Shown here: positions 48,457-54,774 of the stretch, one piece after another
Layout: the number at the start of each line of letters is the position of its first letter
Position numbering within the stretch: position 1 is the stretch's first letter
Notes under the pieces: model-generated
Told to the model about the DNA's origin: nothing
The model's input: only the letters and a program-made list of their open reading frames with translations
Databases searched by the model: none
From: a virus
Taxonomy: Duplodnaviria; Caudoviricetes
Virus record (IMG/VR): IMGVR_UViG_3300033066_000802
Location: 32,001 to 96,000 of that record
Length of the DNA stretch: 64,000 nucleotides
Strand: one strand, 5' to 3'
Translations under genes and position numbers: made by a program

Positions 48457-50292
48457 TTATATTAATGTTCTAATTGGTGTTGAAGCGACTGGTATAACCA
48501 CGATGTCAGTATTAGGATTTCTTAATTGTAGAATCTGATTTTCATCACAATTAATTACCCCAGATGATAAATCAATTTCACCCGTAACGGTATCAAACAA
48601 ACTTTGATTTATTGTATTTTGTGAATAACCAACTGAAGTCTTATTAAATACCTTAATATATGTTATATTAAGAACACCCTGGATTGCACTTATTATTTTT
48701 ATTAGATTGAATATGTAATAACTTTGACCCATTTGCCTTTTGGATGCTAAAAATTCGTTAGTAACCGATTGTATAATTTGGGTTATTGTTGATAACTGGC
48801 TATTCTGATCAATTAAAACAGAAATTTCAAACCCAAGATCAATCACTTCCCCTGGCGCTACAACAACATAGTCATTTATCATTCTGTATTCAGAGAGATA
48901 TGTTGCAATATTCTCCATTATTACACTGGTCACCTGACTATCAAAAGCTCCGCTGGCACCCATTGTAATTGGATTTATCTCAATTTTATTCATATTTTGC
49001 CTTACACCAACTCTGGCAGGTGTACCAAATTTACTCGGCATACCTAACAATATCGCCTTATAATCATTCAAGGTTACCGCACGATCCTGAGCGGCAAAGT
49101 TATACGCTATGTAATTCCTTAATTCTTCAATAGATGGGGCTTCACCGCCACCAATTGCTGGTGTAATATTCGTTACTGTTAATGAGCCTTGCACAATAGC
49201 ATTCAATGTTGTGTCAGGTCCGTTTAAAGCTATATTCATATAACCAAACGTATCTATTACGTTTGCACCAATATTTGTTGCCGTACCACCACCAACTCTG
49301 TATTTAATATACATTGTGGTATTCGTCAGCGGAGCTAAACCCAAACTGTTATTGTTTAGAAAACTATTAAGATTTATGCTATTACCAGACAAGAAACTGT
49401 CAAGTATATCGAATGATTGGTTTGTTTTTGAACCAAATGTTAGGGTACAGAAACCAGTTGGTGTAAACTCTCTTACAAATTTAAAATCAGTTTCTAACCA
49501 TTGACCCTTATAATAACCATTTTCATCTGGTGGTACCGCAGTATCATAAACAAATACACTATTCTGAGCTAAAGAATTAACCTCATACCACCTATTGGTT
49601 TGAGAATTAAATTCACTATCAGTTGGGTTTTTCGTATAATTAGTACCATTTTTATAAATCACAGATTCAATAGCCAACACGTTATTTTCTGGTAAAGTAA
49701 TCTTGTAAAAAGGAACTGGGGTAGAATTACCAAAAACTTGTGTATATATCCTGGTAGTACCAGCTGTTACAATACCCGTTTTAGTTATTGTATATGCTGT
49801 TAAAACCCCGTTATTGAATATTGGTGTTTTCGTCCTATCAAGTGACCCAGATGAATTATAATTACTACCAAAATCAACATCATAAAGTAATTCAAAATTT
49901 TGACCATTACCAATAACCTGAGTACCTGCACGTAAGACTGGTAAATATCTCTTATCCTCAGCATCGGCAAATACAGGTATTTGTGCGCTGAATTGACAAA
50001 CCGCTATACTCGCAGATAACGTTGGTAATTTCAAACCATAGGTTTTAGCAATATTGTATAGTGATCTTCTTTCCTGAGCAAAATCTAATACAGTTTCCTG
50101 TAATGATCTATCAATATTAAAATGTAAGTTATCTGCCAAGGCTGCGCCAAGATCCAAAAATACCGACATTATTGATCCATCATTGAAGTTCTGAATAACC
50201 TCAGGATAATACTTATTTATGTAATCTATCTGTTCTTGTCTTAAAGTAGCGAAATCTCTACTTGAGTACGATATTGTATTTGTTGTTGCCAT
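48457..50292 (-). CDS. Baseplate wedge subunit (T4 gp6 / P2 gpJ-like)
   Basis: YSSRDFATLR, AQERRSLYNIAKTYG, YRVGGG, GGGEAPSIEELR, QDRAVTLNDY. Confidence 0.88.
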   Translation of the reverse strand: MATTNTISYSSRDFATLRQEQIDYINKYYPEVIQNFNDGSIMSVFLDLGAALADNLHFNIDRSLQETVLDFAQERRSLYNIAKTYGLKLPTLSASIAVCQFSAQIPVFADAEDKRYLPVLRAGTQVIGNGQNFELLYDVDFGSNYNSSGSLDRTKTPIFNNGVLTAYTITKTGIVTAGTTRIYTQVFGNSTPVPFYKITLPENNVLAIESVIYKNGTNYTKNPTDSEFNSQTNRWYEVNSLAQNSVFVYDTAVPPDENGYYKGQWLETDFKFVREFTPTGFCTLTFGSKTNQSFDILDSFLSGNSINLNSFLNNNSLGLAPLTNTTMYIKYRVGGGTATNIGANVIDTFGYMNIALNGPDTTLNAIVQGSLTVTNITPAIGGGEAPSIEELRNYIAYNFAAQDRAVTLNDYKAILLGMPSKFGTPARVGVRQNMNKIEINPITMGASGAFDSQVTSVIMENIATYLSEYRMINDYVVVAPGEVIDLGFEISVLIDQNSQLSTITQIIQSVTNEFLASKRQMGQSYYIFNLIKIISAIQGVLNITYIKVFNKTSVGYSQNTINQSLFDTVTGEIDLSSGVINCDENQILQLRNPNTDIVVIPVASTPIRTLI

Positions 50293-50296
50293 TATG

Positions 50297-50713
50297 TTAG
50301 AAAGTTAATGTTATATCATCCGATACCTGAAAGGTTCTCGAAGTTATTGTGTAATCTATTTTTACCGTAACCGTATGCTGTTTCTCATAATCATTAACAT
50401 ATTGTAAATTATTCATATATTGTGTTACATTTATATTATTGATTTTTAGGTTTGGTAAATAAGCTTCGCATGAGGTTTTTATCTCATTTTTTATTGCCGT
50501 AATTACTGTATCCGTTAGCGGTTCGAATATATATTGATATAAATTTGTTCCGAAATCAGGTAAAAAATACCTCGATCCTTTCCTCGTTAACAGTAAATGT
50601 ATCAGATTTGACTTAATCTCCTTTTCTGGATATGTGGTCAAATCCAAGAAGTCACCATTGATGGAGTCCTTGAATGGGAAATTTATACCTAATGTTTTTT
50701 GTCTGAAATCCAT
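50297..50713 (-). CDS. Baseplate wedge / sheath initiator (T4 gp25 / gpW-like)
   Basis: GINFPF, IKSNLIHLLLTRKGSRYFLPDFGTNLYQYIFEP. Confidence 0.92.
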   Translation of the reverse strand: MDFRQKTLGINFPFKDSINGDFLDLTTYPEKEIKSNLIHLLLTRKGSRYFLPDFGTNLYQYIFEPLTDTVITAIKNEIKTSCEAYLPNLKINNINVTQYMNNLQYVNDYEKQHTVTVKIDYTITSRTFQVSDDITLTF

Positions 50714-50760
50714 GCCAAATATTTATTATAAATAGTAATCAAAATAAAAATATTGTAAAT

Positions 50761-50789
50761 AAAAAACCACCCAGGATCACTGAGTGGTT
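50761..50789 (-). terminator. Intrinsic terminator after the HNH gene (probable ancestral nrdJ terminator)
   Basis: On -: AACCACTCAG-tgatc-CTGGGTGGTT followed by a T run. Confidence 0.75.
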
Positions 50790-50812
50790 CATATCTTGTT
50801 TATTTTAATAAC

Positions 50813-51388
50813 TTATTTGACTTCACAACCAGCGGCACCGCCACTATGTTCAGTAACTAATTTACACATCTTGATGAAATGTTCCTGTGTGTAAATTCTC
50901 TTCATCATATTAATGTCTTTATGTACCCATTGAACATTACCTTCAATATAACCCTTATCATTATTAATTCTATCTAAAGACATAGTTAAATTATTATGTG
51001 AATTGTCTAATAATAAACCACTTAATAAACATTTTTTATTTTGTTTAATAAATAAATCATTAAGATAAACCATTGTTAAGTCGAACTCAATATTTCTAAA
51101 TTTTGCATCTCTTTTTATTTTACTAAATACTTTACCAGGTAAACTATTGTAACCTCGCCAAGCTGGGTTATTTTCTTTTTTTAATGAATTACCACAAATT
51201 AAACATTTTGTTGATGTCCCTTTAATTAATGAATAACAAGATACTTTACTTATTTTTCCACATGAACATTTACATGTTACTTTAGCCTCTCGTTCAATTA
51301 TAATGTTACCATCAATGATAACATATTCACCATATTTTTGACCAATATTAAATTTATTAACATATTTAGACGTATTTTTATATCCCAT
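50813..51388 (-). CDS. HNH-type homing endonuclease
   Basis: CKCSCGK..CLICG, ENNPAWRG, CLLSG, SLDRINNDKGYIEGNVQWVHKDINMMK; start at the ATG at 51388 just after TATTTAT. Confidence 0.85.
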   Translation of the reverse strand: MGYKNTSKYVNKFNIGQKYGEYVIIDGNIIIEREAKVTCKCSCGKISKVSCYSLIKGTSTKCLICGNSLKKENNPAWRGYNSLPGKVFSKIKRDAKFRNIEFDLTMVYLNDLFIKQNKKCLLSGLLLDNSHNNLTMSLDRINNDKGYIEGNVQWVHKDINMMKRIYTQEHFIKMCKLVTEHSGGAAGCEVK

Positions 51389-51477
51389 ACTAATAAATAT
51401 GTTGATATTTACTAAAAGTGCTGGTTTAAAAACCAGCACCATTTGTAAACTTACTTTATCTCACATCCACCACTCGA
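50843..51477 (-). mobile_element. Putative free-standing HNH mobile element inserted in the nrdJ 3' end
   Basis: Removing it in silico joins nrdJ ...ELAC to GGAAGCEVK-stop in frame; the element carries a replacement tail SSGGCEIK-stop, a terminator, a promoter-like motif and the HNH ORF. Confidence 0.65.
51414..51439 (-). terminator. Hairpin terminator between nrdJ and the HNH gene
   Basis: gtgctggttt-aa-aaaccagcac followed on - by TTTT. Confidence 0.7.
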
Positions 51478-53310
51478 ACAAGCTAACTCACCACTCAAAT
51501 CTGTATTATCATCGTGTTCAATTATTTGACTTAAATCAATAGATGTTAAATGCTTTAATAAATTTTCATATTCTTCTTTTGTACAATCAGTAAAGGGAGC
51601 CTGTATATAAGAACCACCGTCATATGGTAATACGGATAAACCATTATAAAACTCTTTATTATTCCACATCCATTCACCAACATTTTCCCAATCACCATCC
51701 TTAATTGATATTGTAGCCGACACATTATGTGTGTTTTCACCCTTTCTATGACCACCTTTAATCCAATCTTTAGATATTTTCTTAACACGCTCCAATAAAT
51801 CGATGGATGACTCAGTTCTGAGTATGGAATTAGTTGGCGCTTTTTGTGGTACGCTGATTACAGCTGTATCATGTGGTCTAAAATATTCATCTTCAATCAA
51901 TTCTGGATGATATATTGATAAATATGTATATATAGCCTCATTTTTACCTACACGAAGTCTACGAACATAATAATCATTAAACCACGCATGGACACCTGAA
52001 GAAGTACCCAAAACTAAAGAACTTGTACCTGATGGTTTAACAGTTGTAGTTCTTGCAGCAACGTTAATACCTATTATACCAGCTACACGCTCATTTTCTT
52101 TTTTGACAATATTAGCCGCTTCCTTCATGTTGTAATTCAACACAACACCAGAACCTATACCTGTCATTCCAACCCCAATTAGAGCCTCCTTTTCGGTTGT
52201 TCTCTTCCATACTTCACGTATGTAGTGGAAGTTGGTATATCCAGCCTGTAAGGTACCTATAAATGCCGCAACCTTAACCCTCTCATTATAATCTTCTTGC
52301 GATTCAATATTTGAAACATTAACCTCACAAAGATTACAAAATTGATACGGTCTTAAAGCAATTTCGCAACATGGGTTTGTACCCCAATCTTTATCATTTG
52401 TAAAATAAATACCTGGTTCACCAGAACCTGAAAGTTCAATTCTCTTCCATAGATCATCAAAGAATTCTTTGGTAATTTTATGCCTCAATAATACAGCTGA
52501 ATTATTCGACCTACCCCTTTGAGGGTTTGTTTCCCACCAGCTACCTGACTTACATGAAATCATTTCATCATCATCAGCCGAAAATAAAGATATTAATGCC
52601 GCTCTACGAATACCACCAGCAAGTACCGCATCAGCTATATAACAAACAATATCGTGAACTTCGATTGTGGATAATTTATCACCATCCTCTTTATTGTTCA
52701 ATATTTTCTGAACATTATGTATACAATCCTTTAATGGTTGAGGGCCTGGAGCTTTACCACCAGATGTTATTAATCTTGCACCTTTAGGTCTGATATCAGA
52801 ATAATCAAAATCAGGTGTAGATGATATTTCGCCAGTATATGACTTAATTAATATTTTAATTGCGTCAGCCCACCCCTCAATTGTGTCAGATATTAAAAAT
52901 CTTCTCTTCCTATCTGGTTTTGGTTTCCTTATTTCAGGTAATTTCTCAACGTGGTGTTTTTGAACAGAATATCCAACGCCCGTACCACCTAATAAGAGGA
53001 ACATAACCTCTGGAAAACATTCAATATGATCAATAGGTAAATAACAACAGTTATATATTCTATTTGGTGATATTTCAATCGGTTTCCCTCCGAATTGAAG
53101 TGACCTCATTGAAGGTAAAACCTTCCTATCATATACATATTGATAATTTTTTATTATTTCTTCCCGTAATTGTGGATATTGCTTGATATGCATATCCATA
53201 TTCCTTGTTACCAAATCATGCCAACTCTCTCGTTTTTCCTTTTCTGGTAAAAATTTAGCGTACTTCATGTACACTGTAATGTCACTTAAAATTTTTTGTG
53301 ATAAATCCAT
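51451..53310 (-). CDS. nrdJ: Class II (adenosylcobalamin-dependent) ribonucleotide reductase, monomeric RTPR type
   Basis: LPSMRSLQF, YNCCY, GGTGVGYS, RRAALISLF, TNPCCEI, TTVKPSGTSS, C-terminal ACSSGGCEIK. Confidence 0.93.
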   Translation of the reverse strand: MDLSQKILSDITVYMKYAKFLPEKEKRESWHDLVTRNMDMHIKQYPQLREEIIKNYQYVYDRKVLPSMRSLQFGGKPIEISPNRIYNCCYLPIDHIECFPEVMFLLLGGTGVGYSVQKHHVEKLPEIRKPKPDRKRRFLISDTIEGWADAIKILIKSYTGEISSTPDFDYSDIRPKGARLITSGGKAPGPQPLKDCIHNVQKILNNKEDGDKLSTIEVHDIVCYIADAVLAGGIRRAALISLFSADDDEMISCKSGSWWETNPQRGRSNNSAVLLRHKITKEFFDDLWKRIELSGSGEPGIYFTNDKDWGTNPCCEIALRPYQFCNLCEVNVSNIESQEDYNERVKVAAFIGTLQAGYTNFHYIREVWKRTTEKEALIGVGMTGIGSGVVLNYNMKEAANIVKKENERVAGIIGINVAARTTTVKPSGTSSLVLGTSSGVHAWFNDYYVRRLRVGKNEAIYTYLSIYHPELIEDEYFRPHDTAVISVPQKAPTNSILRTESSIDLLERVKKISKDWIKGGHRKGENTHNVSATISIKDGDWENVGEWMWNNKEFYNGLSVLPYDGGSYIQAPFTDCTKEEYENLLKHLTSIDLSQIIEHDDNTDLSGELACSSGGCEIK

Positions 53311-53370
53311 AAAATAGTTTCGTTTTAAAGATAAATATACCTAACTTAAACAAGTTTTATATTTATTTTT

Positions 53371-54774
53371 TTATGCTACGTTTGTTCCTTCTCTTTGATT
53401 CCTAATGTCCTTTAATTTTTCAGCCAATAATCGATCTCTATTATTCTTATCCTGTTCCTCAAAACCTTGTATGGATATGATATCCTCAGTATCAATTAAC
53501 ATTTTACCATTATCAAATAAGCAATTTTGGAAAATCATACCGTCATCACCCATACGATTTTTTAATATGGTTATAGTTGCCCTTTTACTCTCTTTTTGTT
53601 CGAGAGTCTTTCCCACACTCACAATAAGGTGTGCTATTTGTGCTTTTTTAAGATTTCCACCCATATTTTCAGTTTTAACAACCTCAACAGCGGTTGATGA
53701 TCTATTACCTTGGGTAGCCACCCATCCAGCAACATTCATATCTGAAATCATAGTTTCGCACTGACGCATGATTTTACCTTCATTTGACCATTCTTCACTA
53801 CCAGAAAATTCTTTTTCAGCTGATAAACAATCAAGATAATCAATAATAACAAGATCAATTTTATCACCTTTTGAGTTAATCCTCTTAATTAAATTTTTAA
53901 TAACATTTACAGTGCAACCATCCGCAGATAATTTCATTATAAATAACTTACCAATACTCTCACTTGATGTTGCTATTTTAACTTTCTTTTTTACTTCATC
54001 TTTCCTTAATGATAATTCATTTAGTGGTATCTCAGTTAGTGAACAATAATGTTTACGTTGTACATCTCTCTTATTATCTTCAAAGAATATTTGTAATACG
54101 TTACGACCAGATTGGTATGCTGTACTTGCAATTTTTGTTAACATTGTTGTTTTACCAACCCCAAGAGGCGCTATTATTAACGCAAGTTCACCCTTAGCTA
54201 ACCCACCATTGGTTATCTTATCAATACCCTTAATACCTGTCGGTATTGGCTCTCTATAATCATCCGATAACGCATCATCAATCTCATATTCAAGATCAAT
54301 TGGTTCATCGATTTGTCTGAAATTCAAAGCCTTTTTTAAGGTTTCCTCAATCATATCAACGTCTTGAAGAATACCCTTATCCAATTTAGTTTTAATTTGA
54401 TTAACAGCTGTTTTTAATGATTGCATTTTACAAAACCTCATCGCAGTTTCCTGTACATTTAGGTTATTGATTTTACATTTTTCGATATTATCGATTGTAT
54501 CCAATAACTGTTGTTTAAATGTTTCAGTACCAGGTGAGGTTATATTCATATTAACCTCAGTCCTTAATGCTGGGAAATTTAATAAGCATTGATGCTGTGT
54601 ATGGTATTCCTTTATTAGGTGTGCTATCTTTGCAAAAGCCTCGTTAGCAAAATATTGTTTATCAATAATATCTATAATTGTCAAACCAAATTTATGATCG
54701 GTAACGATTTCATTAAAAAGTTGTAATTGATAGTCAACCCCTAAATCACTTATTTTCGTTATCTTTTCAATCAT
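53371..54774 (-). CDS. Replicative DNA helicase (DnaB/gp41-like)
   Basis: IPTGIKGID, Walker A APLGVGKT, IIDYLD, ATQGNR, KNRMG. Confidence 0.92.
   Translation of the reverse strand: MIEKITKISDLGVDYQLQLFNEIVTDHKFGLTIIDIIDKQYFANEAFAKIAHLIKEYHTQHQCLLNFPALRTEVNMNITSPGTETFKQQLLDTIDNIEKCKINNLNVQETAMRFCKMQSLKTAVNQIKTKLDKGILQDVDMIEETLKKALNFRQIDEPIDLEYEIDDALSDDYREPIPTGIKGIDKITNGGLAKGELALIIAPLGVGKTTMLTKIASTAYQSGRNVLQIFFEDNKRDVQRKHYCSLTEIPLNELSLRKDEVKKKVKIATSSESIGKLFIMKLSADGCTVNVIKNLIKRINSKGDKIDLVIIDYLDCLSAEKEFSGSEEWSNEGKIMRQCETMISDMNVAGWVATQGNRSSTAVEVVKTENMGGNLKKAQIAHLIVSVGKTLEQKESKRATITILKNRMGDDGMIFQNCLFDNGKMLIDTEDIISIQGFEEQDKNNRDRLLAEKLKDIRNQREGTNVA

Follow-up and report, generated by a model that had tools for sequence, protein, structure and literature searches.

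Selfish endonuclease genes are thought either to need an intron or intein when they occupy essential coding sequences, or to remain intergenic. Inteins and group I introns are selfish elements that invade conserved, critical sites of ribonucleotide reductase (RNR) genes while the enzyme is kept working. Here we analyzed a 64,000-nucleotide stretch of a tailed-phage genome (positions 32,001 to 96,000 of IMG/VR record IMGVR_UViG_3300033066_000802, hereafter the window), in which nrdJ, the gene for a monomeric-type B12-dependent RNR, is followed by an open reading frame (ORF) for an HNH-type nuclease. Comparison with related loci makes it very probable that nrdJ has been invaded within its coding sequence by a free-standing cassette, built around a homing endonuclease of the HNH superfamily, whose insertion point immediately follows the codon for the first of two C-terminal redox cysteines. 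As with RNR inteins and group I introns, a critical RNR site is invaded and the enzyme is preserved; those elements splice, whereas in the window a stop codon and a terminator stand behind a substitute tail.

The closest known system is the mORF gene hybrid of fungal mitochondria, described for atp6, atp9, cox2, and nad3 of Glomus (PMC3630166), which cites Allomyces macrogynus atp6 as the first case. C-terminal duplications of atp6 and cob have likewise been found beside endonuclease ORFs in fungal mitochondria (PMC6279837). The mORF hybrids resemble the present locus in that an endonuclease ORF lies within the final coding stretch of a host gene, an in-frame substitute C-terminus is provided, and the native one is displaced downstream, all without splicing. 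They differ in carrying LAGLIDADG or GIY-YIG enzymes, in residing in organelle genomes, and in duplicating tens to hundreds of codons, whereas the element in the window is of HNH type, belongs to tailed phages, duplicates 7–15 codons, and targets the redox tail of NrdJ. Furthermore, in the window the host gene is separated from the nuclease by a terminator, and the nuclease has a start of its own.

Free-standing homing endonucleases of T4-like phages, including mobE between nrdA and nrdB and the "intronless homing" enzymes SegF, SegG, and SegB (PMC2988022, PMC2790892, PMC2330249), are similar as stand-alone genes beside conserved genes, with patchy distribution, co-conversion of flanks, and a preference for RNR neighbors. 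In contrast to the window element, they are intergenic, replace or duplicate no coding sequence, and have ORFs that lack host-gene codons at their ends. A mobE insertion splits nrdA in Aeromonas phage Aeh1, giving "genes in pieces" (PMC3045599, PMC3653736). There too, a phage HNH gene lies within RNR coding sequence without an intron or intein, the host enzyme remains functional, and the insert adds residues. The Aeh1 nrdA becomes two polypeptides that reassemble, whereas the nrdJ of the window, losing no more than its final codons to the replacement, is still a single gene. No phage 3'-end replacement of this layout is described in the literature searched, a search that leaves most subscription journals outside and is not proof of absence.

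The nuclease ORF ends in an nrdJ tail

The NrdJ of the window ends in E-L-A-C-S-S-G-G-C-E-I-K-stop, a C-terminus of the C-x4-C type. A stop codon and a terminator part it from the nuclease ORF, which lies in another frame and ends in T-E-H-S-G-G-A-A-G-C-E-V-K-stop, with its stop at 50813. The C-terminal cysteine pair of monomeric NrdJ is carried on a flexible tail, takes up electrons from thioredoxin or glutaredoxin, and hands them on to the active site (PMC5704485), and a substitute tail is therefore required for function. The window's NrdJ is 77–89% identical to 80 IMG/VR homologs, all of equal length, and every one of these relatives ends in C-x4-C-E-[IV]-K.

A degenerate DNA pattern representing the last eight nuclease residues and the stop was searched across all IMG/VR. 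Because its four matches are without exception NrdJ C-termini, each preceded by A-C, the likeness between the nuclease end and NrdJ tails is far above chance. The pattern extended by A-C has a single metagenome match, locus L154, whose NrdJ belongs to the same clade as that of the window, is 77.6% identical to it, has no nuclease downstream, and ends exactly in the tail found on the nuclease. Deleting 50840-51477 restores A-C-G-A-A-G-C-E-V-K-stop, a natural nuclease-free allele. On this comparison of sequences, the nuclease tail is a remnant derived from nrdJ. The two tails in the window differ in amino acids and in most of the codons that they share.

An earlier reading made from the window sequence alone (the sequence-only reading) had already recognized two nrdJ-type tails, at the end of nrdJ and at the end of the downstream nuclease ORF, and both are confirmed. 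It had reconstructed the empty allele by deleting 50843-51477. The junction chosen in this way is one codon off and would give a C-x5-C spacing that occurs in 0 of the 80 relatives. Alleles ending in the remnant tail do exist among nuclease-free nrdJ genes, as it had predicted (the IMG/VR matches and L154), but without the extra codon. The search that it had proposed for nucleases ending in G-C-E-[IV]-K retrieves 4 of the 120 best nuclease homologs.

An intron or intein was considered and rejected. No Rfam intron match was obtained at E-values up to 1 over 50200-53400, and no intein was seen, NrdJ being colinear with its relatives at equal length. The invasion is thus splicing-free, as the sequence-only reading had supposed.

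The nuclease stop lies at the old nrdJ stop

Among relatives whose flanks are visible, the closest is L005 (NrdJ 88–89% and gp25 82% identical). It has no nuclease, and 102 nt separate its nrdJ from the gp25 that comes next. In the window, the interval from the nuclease stop to gp25 is 99 nt long and agrees with these 102 nt at 77 of 102 positions, hairpin included, a score equaled by 0 of 300 shuffles. The nuclease stop accordingly sits at the position of the L005 nrdJ stop, at an equal distance from the terminator. This terminator (−16.9 kcal/mol, z −3.7) has homologous hairpins in three relatives, located behind nrdJ in L005 and behind the nuclease gene in L088 and L157. The 62 nt behind the present nrdJ stop are unrelated to the nrdJ–gp25 spacer of L005 (214 of 300 shuffles score equally) and align with the equivalent spacers of the nuclease-bearing L091 and L088 (0 of 300 shuffles). 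They include a second hairpin (−20 kcal/mol, z −5.6), which a simple terminator scan overlooked and folding reveals clearly.

These observations bear out the central claims of the sequence-only reading, which held up in every comparative test made: the element was inserted between the shuttle cysteine codons, it supplies a substitute tail, and the 3' end of the nuclease gene is formed by the displaced one. The flank match with L005, the natural remnant-tail alleles, and 17 of 18 other loci (described below) speak together for this reading, as does the absence of such a tail from every homolog without an upstream RNR gene. The terminator that it had placed at 50761-50789 is present, with coordinates corrected to 50764-50790.

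Distribution of the nuclease and mosaic structure of nrdJ

The nuclease is distributed patchily. It is absent from L005 and present in L091 and L150 (NrdJ 85% in both) and in L088 and L157, while in the main cluster of relatives (NrdJ 78%) 68 of 71 loci have no nuclease at the nrdJ site. For L004, which has an NrdJ of equal length and 89% identity, downstream sequence is visible for only 15 nt.

A maximum chi-square analysis placed a breakpoint at nrdJ nucleotides 1652-1680, corresponding to window positions 51658-51630, a distance of 180–208 nt from the nrdJ stop. On the upstream side of this breakpoint, the window groups with the nuclease-free L004 (180 vs 97 informative sites), and on the downstream side with the nuclease-bearing L091 (31 vs 14). 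This signal was matched by 3 of 5000 permutations, and the identity of the window's nrdJ to that of L157 falls at the same breakpoint. The sequence pattern indicates that the last ~190 nt of nrdJ were probably co-converted together with the cassette. The nearest relatives also change from part to part: L091 for the tail and spacer, L088 for the nuclease body (~80% identity, the nearest nuclease relative), L150, L151, and L157 for the nuclease 3' end and remnant, and L088, L157, and L005 for the downstream flank. Such a mosaic is what would remain after repeated homing with co-conversion tracts of variable length. As to which end is foreign, the 3' tract of nrdJ has its affinity with L091, the flank beyond the remnant is native-like, and the remnant is common to other nuclease-bearing genomes.

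The ancestry of this tract bears on an alternative in which the cassette landed in the spacer after an untouched native nrdJ stop, and the remnant is an old scar from a former host. We consider this improbable, since the last ~190 nt of nrdJ, tail included, are of other ancestry, and the nuclease stop coincides exactly with the L005 nrdJ stop position at equal terminator distance. It gains from four nuclease-free loci (L072, L075, L079, and L080) that end exactly in the window's present tail, from the sharing of the remnant and nuclease 3' end with L150, L151, and L157, and from L153 (below), in which a remnant appears able to travel with the gene. Even such a landing would still imply a primordial tail swap, with the date and the host alone changed. 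The sequence-only reading had taken nuclease-free relatives with the present tail as a sign against insertion. The four loci formally provide it, but the comparison is not discriminating, because a cassette-borne tail must itself be a natural nrdJ tail.

Displaced tails in related loci

Insertion after the first cysteine codon, with displacement of the native tail, recurs beyond the window. Among the 120 best nuclease homologs, 11 have a cysteine-acid-aliphatic motif no more than two residues from the end, and 18 further loci were found in which a related nuclease ends in a tail remnant. In 17 of these 18, a monomeric-type nrdJ lies directly upstream and the remnant matches the local tail type. 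The same order of substitute end, nuclease, and displaced end is seen in L099-L101, L105, L106, L113, L116, L119, L120, L125, L126, L150-L152, and L155-L157. K-type remnants stand beside K-type nrdJ tails (L099, L150, L151, and L157), the longer V-D-L-type remnants beside V-D-L tails (L105, L106, L113, L116, L119, L120, L125, and L126), and short-type remnants beside short-type tails (L100, L101, and L152). The remnant usually starts directly after the first cysteine codon, as in L105, L116, and L101; it starts with that codon in L152 and seven codons ahead of it in L155. None of the 30 homologous loci without a visible upstream nrdJ carries such a tail; the sequence-only reading had named a tail on nucleases unlinked to nrdJ as evidence that would tell against it.

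In L155, the nuclease stands between two copies of a 15-codon nrdJ end (L155:175-219 vs L155:879-923), with 4 of 45 nt differing and the first cysteine codon of the remnant altered to a tyrosine codon. This duplicate reflects either a very recent event or homogenization between the copies. Its near-identity over 15 codons also resembles a recent duplication and is the observation that favors a scheme in which the nrdJ 3' end was first tandemly duplicated and the nuclease was later inserted between the copies. That order of events is very improbable: none of the 68 nuclease-free loci carries a duplicate or a second tail-like motif within 1 kb, the window's tails have diverged as described above, and the spacer after nrdJ is common to nuclease-bearing genomes only.

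Several other loci depart from the common layout. In L153 (L153:864-3660), the nuclease carries a short monomeric-type remnant, and its gene shares a 41-nt overlap with the end of an RNR gene of another type. The 725-aa RNR has a cysteine-rich end resembling a zinc finger, and its own tail is unlike the remnant. From this arrangement, the nuclease seems to have moved to a non-cognate RNR while keeping its old scar. In the nuclease-bearing L092, L102, L111, and L156, the functional NrdJ tail continues 7–10 residues past C-E-I or its equivalent (C-L-V in L102). No such extension occurs in the 80 close relatives, which include 68 nuclease-free loci with readable flanks, and the extended tails may be cassette-made hybrids of the K type and the V-D-L type.

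The site may also not be the only one affected. A same-family nuclease with 39% identity lies in the 3' end of a small cysteine-rich ORF (L010:2813-3645 and L070:2886-3718, compared with L008:4597-4801). This ORF is DUF5522-like, with a PF17653 match in L155, and its end past C-C-G is swapped for a differently spelled one, so that the case looks like end-replacement on a second gene. In several nuclease-bearing relatives, nrdJ is additionally broken after residue 428 by an intein-like insert with a 341-aa ORF (L088:748-2437, L151:3-1512, and L152:1-2970), and the downstream piece opens with an intein C-terminal motif. L152 shows intein matches in the RNR and a GIY-YIG gene nearby. In this phage group, nrdJ is a multiple target.

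Characterization of the nuclease

The longest nuclease ORF begins at 51442, within the hairpin after nrdJ, at a start that is not conserved. The start conserved among relatives is the ATG at 51388, which gives a nuclease of 191 aa, and automatic gene calls, such as the 209-aa protein in the public collection, probably over-extend it by 18 residues. The nuclease matches PHROG 3322 ("endonuclease", 1.6e-26) and 1035 ("endonuclease VII", 1.6e-18), and further 3118, 374, and 3377 ("HNH endonuclease"). A sequence search of the PDB gave no match. An AlphaFold model built on 32 homologs (pLDDT 87) predicts strands at residues 136-140 and 152-156 followed by a helix at 157-163, and its top Foldseek matches are mostly of HNH type (PacI, HNH domains of Cas9, Gme HNH, and T4 EndoVII). 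R140, N151, H156, D158, and N160 are invariant across the 32 homologs, and D139 is nearly so. The profile matches support the assignment of the ORF product as a putative HNH-superfamily nuclease, and the predicted fold gives weak matches of the same kind.

In the model, the final helix stops at residue 182, and the tail residues 183-191 are unstructured (pLDDT 42–60). The GC content is 25% for the nuclease body, 48% for the remnant, and 34.7% for nrdJ. Were the cysteine tail intrinsic to the nuclease family, its likeness to NrdJ would have arisen by convergence or chance. This idea is barely credible: the tail is missing from 109 of the 120 top homologs, varies with the tail type of the neighboring nrdJ, is predicted to be disordered and outside the fold, is found solely beside RNR genes, and elsewhere its pattern matches NrdJ ends only. 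A hint of constraint comes from the four K-type remnants compared, whose codon differences include at least six synonymous ones and a single non-synonymous one. This bias may reflect either renewal of the remnant from functional recipient tails at homing or constraint on the peptide or DNA.

In the cultured-phage collection, the best nuclease matches are from Streptomyces and crAss-like phages (38%), and nrdJ does not adjoin them in the records checked by coordinates. Among isolates, the closest NrdJ is that of Microcystis phage Mel-JY01 (66%), in which no nuclease of this kind follows the gene, and the collection holds no close example of the nuclease–nrdJ layout.

Organization of the locus

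The features of the locus are collected in Table 1. Every gene of the region is encoded on the minus strand. The genome, a single contig of 154.6 kb and 31.7% GC, contains no second copy of the nuclease. NrdJ combines the PF02867 and PF21995 domains in the Pfam scan; its best NCBIfam match, RTPR TIGR02505, reaches 256.7 bits, under the cut-off of 340. With the RNR barrel, the class II insertion domain, and the C-terminal cysteine pair, it has the features of a monomeric class II enzyme.

Table 1. Features of the nrdJ–nuclease locus, in window coordinates
Feature	Position	Strand	Remarks
nrdJ	51451-53310	minus	monomeric-type B12-dependent ribonucleotide reductase, 619 aa, intact; Pfam RNR barrel and RNR-II insertion domain
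3' tract of nrdJ, ancestry unlike the remainder of the gene	51451-51658	minus	maximum chi-square breakpoint
First redox cysteine codon	51478-51480	minus	left insertion edge directly 3' of the codon
Substitute tail S-S-G-G-C-E-I-K and stop	51451-51477	minus	fits the clade-wide C-x4-C-E-[IV]-K pattern
Cassette-borne spacer	51389-51450	minus	holds terminator-like hairpin 51407-51450
HNH-type nuclease body, residues 1-183	50840-51388	minus	PHROG profiles, AlphaFold/Foldseek
Junction codons, last two of nuclease body, origin uncertain	50840-50845	minus	
Displaced nrdJ tail G-A-A-G-C-E-V-K and old nrdJ stop, forming the 3' end of the nuclease ORF	50813-50839	minus	
Original nrdJ terminator, now serving the nuclease gene	50764-50790	minus	terminator scan and folding
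gp25-like baseplate wedge gene, conserved right-hand neighbor	50297-50713	minus	Pfam PF04965

In most nuclease-free relatives with enough downstream sequence, gp25 starts ~100–450 nt past nrdJ. The small cysteine-rich ORF that most relatives carry between nrdJ and gp25 is lacking in the window and L005. In L014 (4860-5757) and L066 (4407-5302), a 215-aa ORF of unknown function has been inserted ahead of this small ORF, past the nrdJ terminator, which makes it a further variable insert of the interval. A T-A-T-T-T-A-T box is found a few bases before the starts of the nuclease and gp25 (51391-51399 and 50720-50734), and at the equivalent places in relatives. Over the window as a whole it shows no enrichment (27 observed, 25.8 expected), and no claim is made for it as a promoter.

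Discussion

The cassette has three parts: a substitute nrdJ tail that brings its own stop, a spacer containing a terminator hairpin, and the nuclease ORF. Because the cassette supplies both tail and stop, NrdJ retains a working C-x4-C tail without an intron or intein. The nuclease ORF, having no stop of its own at this point, reads over the junction into the displaced native tail and borrows the old nrdJ stop and terminator. During mixed infection, the nuclease may break a nuclease-free nrdJ in the tail-coding stretch, and the junction would mark this break to within a few codons. Repair from the nuclease-bearing genome would then copy the cassette, with the nrdJ body as the left homology and the remnant tail and downstream flank as the right homology, and would drag along a variable length of donor nrdJ 3' sequence. 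Occupied alleles would be protected by the split site and, in most loci, by the differently spelled substitute tail; divergent copies would also hinder loss of the cassette through recombination between the repeats. No protein-level tail difference between occupied and empty alleles that could explain immunity was seen.

Several points weigh against this account. The case for homing is built on sequence comparison: the architecture of the locus, the nrdJ origin of the remnant and its position at the old stop, the patchy distribution of the cassette, and the mosaic 3' end of nrdJ are directly shown, and the cleavage site, the immunity of occupied alleles, and present-day activity are what we infer from them. 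Scans of the nuclease against Pfam and NCBIfam gave no match, and its Foldseek matches to HNH enzymes are weak (best E-value 9e-3, TM-scores ~0.3–0.6). Since the two copies in L155 are nearly identical, recoding is not obligatory, and the possible destruction of the cut site by recoding, proposed in the sequence-only reading, is weakened as a general rule. Moreover, 19 nrdJ-linked nuclease homologs show no clear remnant, which was either lost or never present. The remnant is nearly equal in the window, L150, and L151 despite their differing functional tails; together with L153, this near-equality means that remnants can travel with the nuclease gene and need not arise anew in each recipient. 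Finally, the window, L150, and L157 have common E-H-S codons ahead of the remnant, and the exact junction is therefore uncertain by two codons. If E-H-S is a common junction, two codons have been inserted in the window remnant, and its spacing is not a natural one.

Beyond tail replacement itself, the displaced tail could be a working part of the element. More than a passive scar, it would be kept intact as the right homology arm and possibly as half of the recognition site, and each homing event would renew it from the recipient's tail. The divergence between copies would be selected because it prevents self-cleavage as well as deletion of the cassette by recombination between the repeats. 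We hold this extension to be unlikely at present. If it were true, the nuclease family would have a dedicated, splicing-free life in the ends of coding sequences, of a generality comparable to that of introns and inteins.

For phages, insertion of the cassette behind the first cysteine codon would constitute a third route for selfish endonuclease genes, in which the final codons of the target gene are swapped and the old ones are retained as the end of the element. It would place the probable cut site of an uncharacterized nuclease family within a few codons, and with the site narrowed in this way, specificity becomes directly testable. It would also explain the mosaic 3' ends of nrdJ, a widely used viral marker, and alert annotators that such nuclease ORFs include host-gene codons. 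In this manner, the biology of these phages would be tied to that of the mORF hybrids of fungal mitochondria.

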